From: Alphaproteobacteria bacterium
GTDB taxonomy: Bacteria; Planctomycetota; Phycisphaerae; UBA1845
DNA length: 64,000 nucleotides
Direction: 5' to 3'
Assembly: GCA_028285105.1 (NCBI GenBank)
Contig: JANQQE010000015.1
Location: 85,881 to 149,880 of the forward strand
Each line of letters opens with the position of its first letter. Within the stretch, counting starts at the first letter, position 1. Positions 57,882 through 60,800 of the stretch are shown piece by piece. The position numbers and the translations under genes were made by a program. The notes beneath the pieces are model-generated. The model had not been told where the DNA came from and searched no databases. It saw only the letters and a list, made by a program, of their open reading frames with translations.

Positions 57882-60800
57882 CTACTTAAGGATCGTCACA
57901 TGACCGCGGTGTTCGTGCCTCTTATCGCCGTTTCCCGTTAAAGAACCCCCACTCGAATCTCCTCCCACGGTCAATCCGTATTTTAAGACCGTGACATGAC
58001 CGTGCCCGTGACCGGTACCAGCGGTCAATCCATATTTTAGTACAGTGACATGACCGTGCCCGTGACCGGCACCACCTGTCAATCCATATTTTAATACCGT
58101 GACATGCCCATGGCCGTGACCACCACCAGCCGACAATCCGTATTTTAAGACCGTGACGTGTCCGCTGCCGCCTCCTGCGGCGATGCCGCCGTTGGTGTTG
58201 TTGGAACGAGAGGAGTTGTAGTCGCCGCCGGATGATGCTCCCCCGCCCGAACCACCTCCGACTCCTCCACCATTGGCAATACCACCGTTCGTATTGTTCG
58301 ATCGAGACGAATTGTAGTCGCCGCCGGTCGTACTATCCGCGTTCTTCAGCACCGTGACGTGCCCACGCCAGTCAACACCCTTCGCGGCAGGGGGCAACTC
58401 GCTTGGACACGAGTCAACCGACGAAGCGCACCTTCCATCCGGGCATCGATACGGCGTTTCCATTGGGCACCCCGGTCCACCGCCCGCAGCATTGACTTTC
58501 TTTGACAAGTCTGCACCGGCTTTGAACTTGACGACATTTTTTGCGGCGATCTTGATTTCCTTACCCGTCTGCGGATTGCGACCAGTTCGTGCGGCGCGTT
58601 TGGAAATCGAGAACGATCCGAAACCGACCAAACTGATCTTGTCGCCCTTCTTGAGACTGCCGGCGTCCTTGGCAATGGCGTCAATGAGTTCACCCTTGTT
58701 CATCAGGCCGAATGGATCCGACTGAGTCCACGGGTTGTTGCCACCGTAGGTGTACGCATTTCCAATATTCAAATCGTCAGCCCATTCACCCAGTGGGTCG
58801 CGCGAGATGAAACGGCCGGCAATGGGTTCAAGGTATCGGTGGCGATTGTAGTACATTCCAGTCGCGTCATCGTAGCGCCGACCATTGAACAGATACGGAT
58901 TTTCTACGAGCGAGAGTGGAATGGCAGCACCAGCCGCATCGAAGAATGACGGTTGTCCATAGTCCTGATACTCATAACGTTCAACGAGAAGCCCATTTGA
59001 ATCGGTCAAGGCCATCACGTTACCCAAGTCGTCGCAGTGGTAGTAGAAATCGCTCGAACCGTGAACCATCTGCACAACTTCATCTACATTTTCGCCGTAA
59101 ACGTATGTCTTGACGGTTCCGAAATTGCTCGATTCTTCAATGACATGGTCTTCGTCGTAGTAATATTCCGTCTGGGTTGAGAGGACCGGTGAACTCTCGT
59201 CCTTGCGGATTCTTCGATCGAGCGGGTCGTATGCGTATTTCGAGAAAATGCCCGTTGTCTGATCGTCGTGAATTACCAAGCGATCCTTGTAGTCATAGAC
59301 CATTTGAATCGGCGGGCCGCCCGACGCGCGTTGTGTTAGATTGCCGTTTTCGTCATAGGCGCGACCGTCGCACCCTGTACTGGTGTATTGGTTCATCTGG
59401 AAGTCCGCTGGCGGGCTTGCCGGATCCATGGTGTACACGCCCGGGCAATTGTCGTTAACAACCTGATTGCGGTTACCGACACTGTCGAGTTGGTACTGGG
59501 TATCGCGAACCAGCGCTGGAACCGAAACGTCTGTCTCCACCGTGCGGGTCAACCGGTATATAGAGTCGTATTCGTATACGTGTTCAAGCTGGGTGGCTGG
59601 TGCGTTTCGAGTTTTCTTGTTGTACTGCGGGTCCCACAGCAAATCGCGAACATCGATAATGCTGCCCGAACCGGGATGTTCGTGAACGATGGTCGCAGGA
59701 AGTTTCACGCCAAAGTCACCCGGACGATTGGGCACACCGCTGATGCCGTTGTAGAAAATACTCGTCGTCGTGCCATTCGAAAGCGCGCGGAGTTGCATGC
59801 GATCCGGACCCACGTATGAGAAATCTGCAATGGGACCGGATGTGTCTGAGATTTCACTGATGCGGTCGAGTTCGTCGTACAAGTAGCTCACCGTACGGCC
59901 ACTCGGATACACGCATGAGGTGTTGTTCCTCAATCCATCGTACGTCGAAGAGATCACCACACCGTTTTGCGTTTCGGAAACCACATTGGAAAGCGAATCG
60001 TATTCCACCGAAACCTGCGAATCGTCATCCTGAGCGAATACCATGCGATTCAAACCATCGTAGGAGTACTGTTCGAAGGTCGTGTCCGTCGAGATACCCG
60101 GACCGACGGTGATGACTTTATCGGTAAGCCGATCCTCAAGATCATAGACGTAGTCAATCTGCGTTCCGTTGGCATCGGTGTGGAGAATCTTGTTGTCGCG
60201 AACATCGTAGTGATAGGACTCGCTGGTTCCGTCGGCGTAACCGGTCAGGGTCAGACGGTCGAGCGCATCGTAAGCGTAGGTCGTTGTGTTTCCGTTGCCG
60301 TCCTGCCGAGAAATCAATCGCGAAGAATCGTCCCAATCCTGAATGCCGACGATCGCACCGATGACTACCCCACCCCCCGTTCCTGTATTCGTCAACAAAC
60401 GGGTCGTCGAAGTCATACGATTCATGCCGTCGTAATCGTATAGGGTCGTATTGCCAAGCGCATCGACCTCTTCTCGCAACAAATCGCGACTGTCGAATTG
60501 ATGAAACTTCGTGTTGCCGAAATTGTCCCCCTTGATGGTCAACCGATTCAAACCGTCGTAGTCGTAGGTCGTGGTAAACTGCTCATCGGGCAGTCCAAGA
60601 TCCGATTTTTCGTTGGTCTCTTCAGAGACGATGTTGGAGTTTGAGTCGTACGTGAAGCGAATCGTATTACCCTTCGCATCGGTGCAGACGGAACGCCGAT
60701 TTGCAGAGTCGTAGATGCAGGTCGCGTTGTGGCTGTTGTCGTCGACAACCTGAATAATTTGCGAGGTATCGGAGTAGAAATACTCGGTTGTCGATTCGCC

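Follow-up and report, generated by a model that had tools for sequence, protein, structure and literature searches.

The 64,000-nucleotide window analysed here (contig JANQQE010000015.1, positions 85,881 to 149,880) carries on its minus strand, at 57882..63551, a gene for an RHS/YD-repeat protein encoded by a single uninterrupted ORF of 1889 aa. Pfam profiles identify DUF6531 (residues 132-204), RHS_repeat (E = 3e-51), RHS and Bac_DNA_binding in this protein, and NCBIfam adds YD_repeat_2x and Rhs_assc_core (residues 1540-1616). Read by eye, the N-terminus is signal-peptide-like and is followed by a dockerin/EF-hand-like stretch. The RHS-associated core ends in DPFGL (58704..58718, minus strand), where the Rhs_assc_core match stops at residue 1616, and which we take to be the usual self-cleavage site freeing the C-terminal payload of RHS proteins. 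Behind DPFGL follow, in order and on the same strand, a truncated HU/IHF-like domain (58482..58703), one Cys repeat (58404..58469) and the GHVT[VI]LK copies together with two DYNSSRSN motifs. The Cys repeat consists of an 11-residue segment, six further positions and CP; it is invariant in five aligned tails and resembles the tandem Cys repeats of another protein, P0006.

The HU/IHF-like domain is recognised by PF00216 (71.6 bits against a cut-off of 22.4), although only profile positions 34-90 are covered, and by an HU-beta profile that aligns at positions 22-90; a PDB sequence search likewise returned HU/IHF matches only. The domain retains its first helix and its beta-arm half, but in comparison with the complete HU of locus L015 about 20 residues corresponding to the second helix are absent. 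It matches the PF00216 family without possessing a complete HU/IHF fold with both dimerisation helices, and it differs from HU/IHF (DNABII) proteins also in its location, being part of an RHS payload here and following a signal peptide in relatives. The HU part of P0027 is 79% identical to it over 56 aa. AlphaFold2 confidence for the HU-like part is below 40. An earlier survey (PMC5499826) describes HU versions of Bacteroidetes that have a Gly-rich tail and, C-terminally, a short conserved region of extended form which possibly binds a partner, and the passages searched there contain no mention of toxin, secreted or RHS for such forms.

Six copies of the heptapeptide lie between 57885 and 58364 in one frame, as originally predicted, the last of them forming the C-terminus of the protein. 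Copy 1 (58344..58364) stands in a 14-residue context, and this column block is invariant in 5/5 aligned tails. It is followed by the two DYNSSRSN motifs, each read as a 15-residue stretch (58275..58319 and 58179..58223), of which the first contains a YNSSRSN that is invariant in five tails. Copies 2, 3, 4 and 5 (58143-58163, 58089-58109, 58035-58055 and 57981-58001) are held in a tandem array at 57968..58169, for which Tandem Repeats Finder reports the expected 54-bp period, with 3.7 copies and 83% matches; its units comprise the motif, 4-5 spacer residues and GHGH, and the spacers are G/H-rich as predicted. Copy 6 closes the last 15 residues (57885..57929) and is directly followed by the stop codon (57882-57884). 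All of the synonymous variants named in the original prediction (gtc/gta, tta/cta, tac/tat, ggt/ggg/gga) are present. When the six 7-codon motifs are compared in all 15 pairs, 57 codon differences are synonymous against 5 that are non-synonymous, and all five of the latter are the V/I exchange of the last copy, while the first three full 18-codon units differ by 18 synonymous and 7 non-synonymous changes. Because of the 57 to 5 ratio, the inferred selection on the peptide holds: purifying selection acts on the heptapeptide and not on the spacers.

A six-frame scan of all 36 contigs of the source genome (4.81 Mb) for HVT[VILM]L[KR] gave six sites, and since every one of them falls in the RHS gene, a chance origin of the six copies is excluded. 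In an even sample of the phylum comprising 401 genomes, a DNA pattern for GHVTVLK was found at five sites in the source genome and at single sites in four others; a reversed-pattern control on the same genomes also gave four single sites. The motif is conserved among homologues, being kept in four related Phycisphaerae tails, and in three of these four HRGHVT[VI]LK is the exact end of the protein. Moreover, in 5/5 aligned Phycisphaerae tails neither copy 1 nor the HRGHVT[VI]LK at the end varies, although overall identity is only 31-71%. In total, seven RHS tails stop exactly at HVT[VI]LK. When the 199-aa tail was searched with phmmer against 1.84 billion representative sequences, eight matches were obtained at E<=1e-3, of which seven rest on the DYNSSRSN stretch and one, P0006, on the Cys repeat; YNSSRSN is repeated in seven of these eight proteins, and GHVTVLK was not seen by eye in any of them.

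The terminal copy had been suggested to resemble the last beta-strand of T9SS type B C-terminal sorting domains (CTDs) of Bacteroidota. This is borne out for the last strand, where 13 of the final 15 residues are identical to the end of L017, one of the Bacteroidota CTD proteins, but not for the tail as a whole, which is no CTD and aligns over 15 profile positions only. L017, used as positive control, matches PF13585 CHU_C at 57.2 bits up to residue 179 of 182, whereas CHU_C gave no match in the tail at E<=10, nor in the whole RHS protein. The proposed comparison with TIGR04131 also turned out negative, with no match at E<=1 for either the whole protein or the 289-aa tail. Ten Crocinitomicaceae/Bacteroidota type B CTD proteins (from MAGs) share a 14-residue ending and all finish in HRGHVTVLK; a pattern search gave 113 matches, of which 92 without confirmation were left out. 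A profile built from the ten CTDs aligns to the tail at positions 86-100 of 100 only (15.1 bits). The final 15 residues are nearly identical in the RHS tail and this Crocinitomicaceae subclass of type B CTDs (TIGR04131/PF13585), in both of which they stand at the extreme C-terminus, and the inner RHS copies have the strand of 7-8 residues in common with it. In contrast, the other 85 CTD positions are without counterpart in the RHS tail, where the strand occurs sixfold, the carrier is an RHS protein and the host shows none of the T9SS parts sought. The source genome (97.8% complete) has no matches to TIGR04131, TIGR03519 and TIGR04189, i.e. no type B CTD, PorP/SprF or SprA, while the control genomes G061 and G062 contain 45 and 48 CTDs and 24 and 20 PorP matches, respectively, with SprA in G061.

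Crocinitomicaceae-type genomes possess 8-14 GHVTVLK sites each, compared with 0 in a control, and in 8/8 cases in G062 and 9/14 in G061 such a site marks the 3' end of a match to TIGR04131. None of the 17 motif-ending CTDs is encoded within 1.5 kb of a PorP/SprF gene, as against 31/76 of the other type B CTDs. The second tail motif, DYNSSRSN, also has a counterpart in T9SS cargo: six paralogues from Crocinitomicaceae carry a ten-residue form of it some 25-30 residues ahead of their C-terminal sorting domain, and one of the six is confirmed to have SprB repeats and a Por_Secre_tail.

The heptapeptide is not restricted to RHS proteins and T9SS cargo. Three word-based searches yielded 46 proteins, 43 of which hold at least two copies, with periods of 11-18, 25, 45, 53-54 or 101-116 residues. 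Nineteen are RHS proteins, in which the array either follows the core or precedes DUF6531; the census further includes HU-like proteins outside RHS (8/46), Hcp (3/46), a gp5-type OB protein (1/46), proteins with an S74 tail-fibre chaperone domain (3/46) and Big_13 proteins (4/46). His occupies motif position 2 in 187/187 counted copies and is the commonest residue at position -3 (58/187), but part of this invariance is built into the census, as the searches need exact 5-residue words and the counting used the motif as a regular expression. In RHS proteins of Kiritimatiellia and Verrucomicrobia (L013, P0042, P0043, P0050 and P0053) the array is N-terminal to the cocoon and the C-terminal end is different; there the array is an accessory and not the toxin. 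Since the heptapeptide is present in proteins unrelated to T9SS, its likeness to the sorting domain is not specific to a secretion signal. Three circumstances would speak against the original prediction, namely occurrence in this gene alone, absence of profile similarity to T9SS CTDs and lack of conservation, and none of them was found in full.

Two other protein classes deserve comparison. In the tandem-Ig proteins of Actinobacteria the identical heptapeptide follows D-[YWH]-[RG] near the end of the Big_13 profile (PF19077) and is kept in every one of the 4-7 diverged tandem domains per protein; the Big_13 matches that hold the motif are weak, however (P0038, positions 72-102 of 102, 27.1 bits, at the cut-off; P0045, positions 49-102 of 102, 20.3 bits, below it). 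These proteins have one heptapeptide per folded domain of about 105 residues, whereas the RHS tail would present bare strands with short linkers and no surrounding domain. Trimeric phage fibres and spikes are built from short-period beta-strand repeats in the form of a triple beta-helix or beta-spiral with His-metal sites, and the array shares with them the period of 11-18, a fixed Gly, alternating hydrophobics and His; the heptapeptide also occurs in proteins with S74 chaperone, gp5-type OB and Hcp domains. The HRGHVT[VI]LK DNA pattern has no match in the viral contig collection, and the ESM Atlas gave no usable match for either the array or P0021. The GHVTVLK unit is matched by no model of Pfam or NCBIfam, and a full-text literature search retrieved neither the heptapeptide nor YNSSRSN. 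The passages searched of the HU-clade paper (PMC5499826) and of the polymorphic-toxin catalogue (PMC3482391) describe no such unit, although their supplements could list it. GHVTVLK may represent a beta-strand unit of seven residues that is new to the literature and with which some secretion signals of Bacteroidota also end. Its seven letters are unchanged in actinobacterial Ig-like domains, in 8-14 T9SS cargo proteins of each Crocinitomicaceae genome, in secreted HU-like proteins of predatory bacteria, and in RHS, Hcp, gp5-type and tail-fibre-like proteins.

The cargo usually assumed for RHS cocoons is an enzyme or a pore-former. The RHS protein analysed here shares with RHS/YD-repeat polymorphic toxins (Rhs and TcC-type cocoons) the DUF6531 domain, the YD repeats, a core ending in DPFGL and a variable C-terminal payload, but differs from them in several respects. 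Neither Pfam and NCBIfam profiles nor the PDB sequence search detect a toxin family after the core, where Bac_DNA_binding is the sole domain; Pfam finds no PAAR domain in the protein; and the N-terminus looks Sec-like by eye. TssC (PF05943), the sole T6SS gene sought, is absent from the source genome, while the E. coli control was positive. There is no immunity-like gene directly downstream of the RHS gene. Its neighbour on that side (55931-57841) runs convergently and encodes a 636-aa membrane-protein-like product without a Pfam match, and the same convergent arrangement is found in genome G002, whereas another RHS gene of the source genome (contig C10) has a tail of the ordinary kind and a small ORF immediately behind it. 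The HU-array gene of Bacteriovoracaceae is surrounded by housekeeping genes. Around the RHS gene, the radical-SAM gene upstream and the 636-aa gene downstream hold their positions within the genus only, and RiPP-like processing by the radical-SAM neighbour was for this reason rejected. This cocoon would instead carry a non-enzymatic mosaic of very short units that are conserved across phyla, without an immunity gene.

As a tentative reading, which we hold to be possible though somewhat short of probable, GHVTVLK is a strand-plus-turn unit that builds beta-sheets or docks onto them, and therefore an element of assembly or adhesion and not a catalytic toxin. The region would be the C-terminal payload that cleavage frees from a Sec-exported RHS cocoon protein in a Phycisphaerae-type planctomycete, and this payload a mosaic in which a truncated beta-arm domain of HU type and a single Cys repeat are combined with two DYNSSRSN motifs and six portable units. 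Each unit of about ten residues, [D/H]-x-[R/H/N]-G-H-V-T-[V/I]-L-K, would form a turn and then one beta-strand. In folded domains it would be one strand near the end of a beta-sandwich, i.e. the final strand in the T9SS type B CTD subclass and a corresponding one in Big_13-type domains, while in arrays with periods of 11-18 the strands would be linked by Gly/His/Asp turns of 4-11 residues. Such strands may join one another in a beta-meander or fibre-like sheet, or extend the sheet of a partner at its edge, and the invariant His and the spacer His possibly bind metal. If the strands behave in this way, the array would give the HU-like payload a multivalent means of assembly or docking and would not be a catalyst. 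The N-terminal accessory arrays of other RHS proteins and the lack of an immunity-like gene behind this one argue for such an assembly element, as do the purifying selection on the heptapeptide, its constancy among the Phycisphaerae tails, its place near the end of beta-sandwich domains and its spread over many protein architectures. AlphaFold2 models are of low confidence: the 289-aa tail (five aligned sequences) has a mean pLDDT of 33.0, with the Cys repeat alone reaching 55-68, and in the model of the tail-fibre-like P0023 (two sequences; mean pLDDT 32.7) strands fall at the motif positions, which at this confidence is weak evidence. Some observations stand against the assembly element. Generic strand pairing fails to explain why precisely H, T and K persist in five phyla or more, a constancy more in keeping with one particular partner, an enzyme site or a chemical role. 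This reading has no need of the terminal 15-residue match to T9SS and the C-terminal position, and it does not account for the recurrent link with HU-like parts and DYNSSRSN. Finding the recogniser would establish the unit as a new portable element among secreted and injected proteins, and could identify the recognition determinant of the orphan type B CTD class.

Among the possible functions we rank strand pairing or assembly first, and a decoy well below. According to the latter, the array and above all its free 15-residue C-terminus would mimic the last strand of orphan type B CTDs, and the RHS payload would dock on or jam the PorP/SprF-type shuttle or translocon of Bacteroidota competitors, which we consider unlikely. 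The equally unlikely extension to all carriers without T9SS (Phycisphaerae RHS, predatory Bacteriovoracaceae HU-like and Kiritimatiellia RHS proteins) would amount to secretion-signal piracy, comparable to the mimicry of the TonB box by colicins. The 13/15 identity with a CTD end, at the very C-terminus in both proteins, fits such a mimic, as do the seven RHS tails with an exact HVT[VI]LK ending, the 8-14 sites per Crocinitomicaceae-type genome against none in the control, the second tail motif in T9SS cargo of six Crocinitomicaceae paralogues and the lack of an immunity gene; moreover, the array carriers tested are without type B CTD, PorP/SprF and SprA. The distance of motif-ending CTDs from PorP/SprF genes (0/17 against 31/76) fits a shared shuttle of orphan CTDs, and the parts of PMC12618676 considered here report that orphan CTDs of F. 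johnsoniae use a shared shuttle and that each of the five CTD motifs A-E is required for secretion of SprB-CTD; type B CTDs are stated to remain bound to PorP-like proteins at the cell surface in a passage of PMC9143113. However, the former source also indicates, in the same parts, that CTD motifs alone are insufficient for shuttle recognition, and the RHS tail matches 15 of 100 CTD profile positions. The occurrence of the heptapeptide in actinobacterial Ig-like domains, Hcp, OB-fold and tail-fibre-like proteins, and the internal or N-terminal place of many arrays, also speak against a mimic, which would further require contact of the producer with Bacteroidota and a route of the payload to their periplasm or surface. 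If the mimicry were nevertheless true, it would be a way for other phyla to target the secretion and gliding machine of Bacteroidota.

The abundance of His invites a different explanation, in which the unit His and the HGH/HRGH/HHGH spacers chelate Zn, Ni, Fe or Cu and metal binding (sequestration, or metal-dependent folding or oligomerisation) is itself the function. His is fixed at position 2 in all counted copies and commonest at -3, the spacers of the RHS tail read GHGHGH, and Cys-x2-Cys...Cys..His knuckles precede the motif in orthologous tails. We nevertheless regard this as quite unlikely, given that the flanking His is freely swapped for R, N, D, S, G or P, that several arrays have one His per unit (P0043, P0049), and that V, T, L and K, which are unneeded for metal binding, are as invariant as H. 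The array might also be a precursor that is cleaved after each Lys into peptides of 12-18 residues, all ending in GHVTVLK as at the natural C-terminus. This would agree with the head-to-tail units each ending in K, the seven RHS tails stopping right after K and a core that is fixed while spacers vary, but there is no linked protease, maturase or exporter gene, the radical-SAM gene keeps its place within the genus only, the tail belongs to an 1889-aa RHS protein and not to a small precursor, and the unit also occurs inside folded Ig-like and CTD domains where cleavage would be senseless; we find such processing very unlikely. Highly improbable, finally, is a degenerate DNA-directed toxin in which the HU-like arm leads the payload to DNA and pairs of His-strand and Asn-motif form minimal beta-beta-alpha-Me-like nuclease sites. 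RHS payloads are often nucleases according to parts of the toxin catalogue (PMC3482391), the HU-like domain is present, P0013 repeats a 24-residue order three times, and the Endonuclease_1 protein of the source genome has YNSSRSNK within its HH...N..R.N motif. The last match may, however, be a family-level N-S-x-R-x-N likeness, since the pattern is found in two of six Endonuclease_1 loci (L062 and L063); furthermore, the GHVTVLK and DYNSSRSN motifs often occur separately, there is no immunity gene, and no nuclease profile matches in Pfam, NCBIfam or the PDB sequence search. Two further candidate ideas are N-glycosylation, for which DYNSS fits a D-x-N-x-S sequon, and a Lys-Asn isopeptide bond.

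The six copies of the heptapeptide GHVT[V/I]LK lie within a single unbroken ORF of 1889 aa on the minus strand (57882..63551), which contains the whole six-copy region (57885..58364). Pfam recognises DUF6531 (residues 132-204), RHS repeats (E = 3e-51) with an RHS core and, after the core, Bac_DNA_binding (residues 1631-1687), and NCBIfam identifies YD repeats and an RHS-associated core domain (residues 1540-1616). Read by eye, the N-terminus resembles a Sec signal, and the RHS frame of the protein is ordinary. The core terminates in ...SDPFGL and the tail begins at the next residue; since the six-copy region stands behind the core in the same ORF, it is the payload that this RHS cocoon protein carries at its C-terminus. 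The tail consists of a truncated HU-like domain (58482-58703, minus strand), a single Cys repeat, GHVTVLK copy 1 (58344-58364, minus strand), two 15-residue copies of a DYNSSRSN-type motif, four GHVTVLK units in a 54-bp tandem array (57968-58169; 3.7 copies by TRF), a Gly/Ser linker and a terminal 15-residue GHVT[VI]LK copy followed by the stop codon.

The six-copy motif exceeds chance. In all six reading frames of the assembly (4.81 Mb in 36 contigs, 97.8% complete), HVT[VILM]L[KR] occurs at six sites, every one in the RHS gene. Across the phylum, sampled evenly at 401 genomes, multiple GHVTVLK sites (five) were found only in this genome, and four others had one site each, the same number as given by a reversed-pattern control. 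Pairwise comparison of the six copies yields 57 synonymous versus 5 non-synonymous codon differences; this excess indicates selection on the peptide and not on the DNA, as originally suggested.

The motif is not restricted to this gene. When 5.8 billion protein clusters were searched three times by a word-based method, the hits numbered 6, 16 and 27, or 46 different proteins; 43 of these carry two or more copies. Gly precedes His in 185 of the 187 copies, but hits must contain exact 5-residue words and the count used the motif itself, both of which account for part of the invariance within the motif. According to Pfam, the contexts among the 46 are RHS proteins (19), HU-like proteins outside RHS (8), Big_13-type domains (4), Hcp (3), S74 tail-fibre chaperone domains (3) and a gp5-type OB-fold (1). 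RHS proteins of Phycisphaerae type carry the array behind the core, and seven tails end exactly at K; those of Kiritimatiellia/Verrucomicrobia type carry it ahead of the cocoon, between a TIG domain and DUF6531, and have a different C-terminal end (...HDTAKNSVGNIR before the stop). One member of the HU-like group, of about 360 aa, is conserved in Halobacteriovorax-type predators; it has four units, begins like a signal peptide, and contains a split HU domain and an HExxH stretch weakly resembling eCIS_core (19.3 bits, below cut-off). The S74 proteins have repeats of 53-54 residues. In Actinobacteria the unit follows D-[YWH]-[RG] near the end of the Big_13 profile, whose matches are weak, in each of 4-7 tandem domains, and several further actinobacterial proteins with the unit have no Pfam match. 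Unit periods are 11-18, 25, 45, 53-54 and 101-116 residues. Three of the proteins (P0030, P0044 and P0047) are multi-Hcp-domain proteins, with up to seven Hcp stretches in 1230 aa and GHVTVLK units in or between the Hcp domains; P0030 is named as Hcp of a Thermoplasmata archaeon MAG, an archaeal filing that may be a binning error.

Homologous tails (E ≤ 0.01) are present in 9 of 61 related genomes, including the source genome. Of the four strongest homologues, one is from another genus and the others from three of the genus's four remaining genomes; all are RHS tails with the motif, which is absent from the three weaker homologous loci inspected (L006-L008). In the alignment of five tails, identity to the window tail is 31-71%, and three invariant blocks, among them GHVTVLK copy 1 with its context, YNSSRSN and the terminal HRGHVT[VI]LK, are separated by divergent linkers; the terminal K is the last residue in four of the five. 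The orthologues have Cys-x2-Cys...Cys..His knuckles where the window tail has GHGH spacers. Other Phycisphaerae RHS tails without the HVTVLK end (L012/L005, L016, P0035 and P0039) share the C-terminal signature ...[IM]LP[AS][AC]N.I..R before the stop.

The terminal copy had been likened to the end of T9SS type B C-terminal sorting domains (CTDs). Scanning one genome per species with [HW][HR]GHVTVLK and a Cys-repeat pattern gave 113 matches, 21 of them confirmed, in 18 loci. Ten loci (nine Crocinitomicaceae, one Bacteroidetes) encode long proteins with a 15-residue GHVTVLK-type end; the one checked has PKD domains and PF13585 CHU_C up to residue 179 of 182. Five such genomes contain the GHVTVLK DNA pattern 8-14 times each (control 0). 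In the Crocinitomicaceae genome G062 8 of 8 sites, and in G061 9 of 14, coincide with the 3' end of a TIGR04131 match; of the remaining five in G061, two are at the start of a contig. From these counts, in these genomes about 1/6 to 1/5 of type B CTDs end in the heptapeptide. Other CTDs there end, for example, in GHFTLVR or GTLNIVK. Among other type B CTDs, 31 of 76 lie within 1.5 kb of a PorP/SprF gene; for the motif-ending CTDs the figure is 0 of 17, and these constitute an 'orphan' class. For F. johnsoniae, PMC12618676 describes one shuttle common to orphan type B CTDs and, within the final 100 residues, five motifs (A-E) that are each needed for secretion of a SprB-CTD reporter and do not suffice for shuttle recognition. 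We would equate the last CTD strand with motif E. Type B CTDs are described in PMC9143113 as uncleaved and held by PorP-like proteins at the cell surface. At L058 (G468:C1:285000-288000), a 12-codon open frame ending ...SGHVTVLK directly follows a CTD gene ending WRGHVTVLK and resembles its duplicated 3' end in another frame. Two HU-array proteins (P0020 and P0027) contain GWDGTYKGKR, similar to a GWDGTYG stretch of the same Crocinitomicaceae CTDs.

The likeness holds for the terminal 15 profile positions and for ten real CTD ends, but not for the rest of the domain. Profile searches of the tail gave no match to TIGR04131 or CHU_C. When the ten CTDs were made into a 100-position profile, the terminal copy matched its positions 86-100 (15.1 bits), and the inner copies only 89-100 (copy 1) or 93/94-100. 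Moreover, neither the source genome nor the array-carrying Bacteriovoracaceae, Kiritimatiellia and Phycisphaerales genomes match TIGR04131, TIGR03519 (PorP/SprF) or TIGR04189 (SprA); two Crocinitomicaceae controls gave 45 and 48 CTD and 24 and 20 PorP matches, with SprA in G061. Taken together, the missing profile match, partial alignment and lack of T9SS genes rule out that the tail is a type B CTD; what the two share is the final strand with its preceding loop.

A phmmer search with the tail against 1.84 billion representatives gave only eight hits, seven of them through DYNSSRSN[KN]. Arrays of this motif follow an outer-membrane beta-barrel domain (one protein confirmed as OMP_b-brl); RHS tails and HU-linked secreted proteins carry them as well. 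Crocinitomicaceae possess six paralogues of about 585 aa whose C-terminal sorting domain is preceded, at a distance of some 25-30 residues, by a DYNSSRSN-type motif; one is confirmed to have SprB repeats and Por_Secre_tail. In these paralogues (L049 and L053-L057, genomes G061 and G467) the motif is a conserved linker of T9SS cargo. P0004, an RHS protein of 2100 aa, has six repeats in which DYNSSRSN is paired with another His-led strand (...HDVIYIFGG), suggesting an exchangeable strand partner. In the source genome but outside the window, L062 (C23:151166-153142) encodes a 659-aa Endonuclease_1 (PF04231) with two lamin-tail-like repeats and the exact octapeptide YNSSRSNK of the tail inside its HH...N..R.N active-site region; of the five other Endonuclease_1 loci retrieved, only L063 matched a looser pattern, sharing N-S-x-R-x-N alone.

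The best-supported reading, which we favour tentatively from sequence comparison, is that the unit comprises a turn and one beta-strand, placed near the end of beta-sandwich domains, and that multiplied units with short linkers would form beta-sheets or dock onto them. This fits the use of the unit ahead of RHS cocoons, in Hcp loops and extensions and in fibre-like proteins, and the absence of an immunity gene, as no immunity-like ORF was found downstream of the RHS gene. We go no further because AlphaFold2 pLDDT is low (33.0 for the tail, 32.7 for the S74 tail-fibre-like P0023) and because H, T and K are kept exactly in different phyla, which suggests a specific partner. Another reading is that the tail imitates T9SS cargo signals of Bacteroidota: both conserved tail motifs recur without a mismatch in T9SS cargo of one Bacteroidota family, the terminal copy matches in C-terminal position too, and the carriers lack T9SS. 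This is the most interesting reading left, but the unit also occurs in Actinobacteria and at many non-terminal sites, and we consider it unlikely. Less supported are a metal array, which seems quite unlikely, a peptide precursor, very unlikely, and a minimal nuclease, highly improbable. Roughly a quarter of our expectation goes to an explanation not yet conceived, with none of these five correct.

The payload and its unit appear to be undescribed: neither has a Pfam or NCBIfam model, the motif strings gave no match in the full-text collection searched, and the passages searched in the HU-clade paper (PMC5499826) and the polymorphic-toxin catalogue (PMC3482391) mention neither.

No TssC was found in the genome and no PAAR domain in the RHS protein. 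Another RHS gene of the genome has an ordinary tail with a small ORF directly behind. Upstream, about 400 bp from the RHS start and on the same strand, a radical-SAM gene beyond the window end (L033:832-2709, minus strand; 625 aa, Radical_SAM_N2 and Radical_SAM) shows synteny only within the genus; the adjacency is kept in genome G002 and not in G005. Downstream lies a convergent gene (55931-57841, plus strand) for a 636-aa protein with no Pfam match, multi-pass in appearance and syntenic in G002, and next to it a gene (52265-55039, plus strand) for a 924-aa Ser/Thr kinase with TPR repeats.
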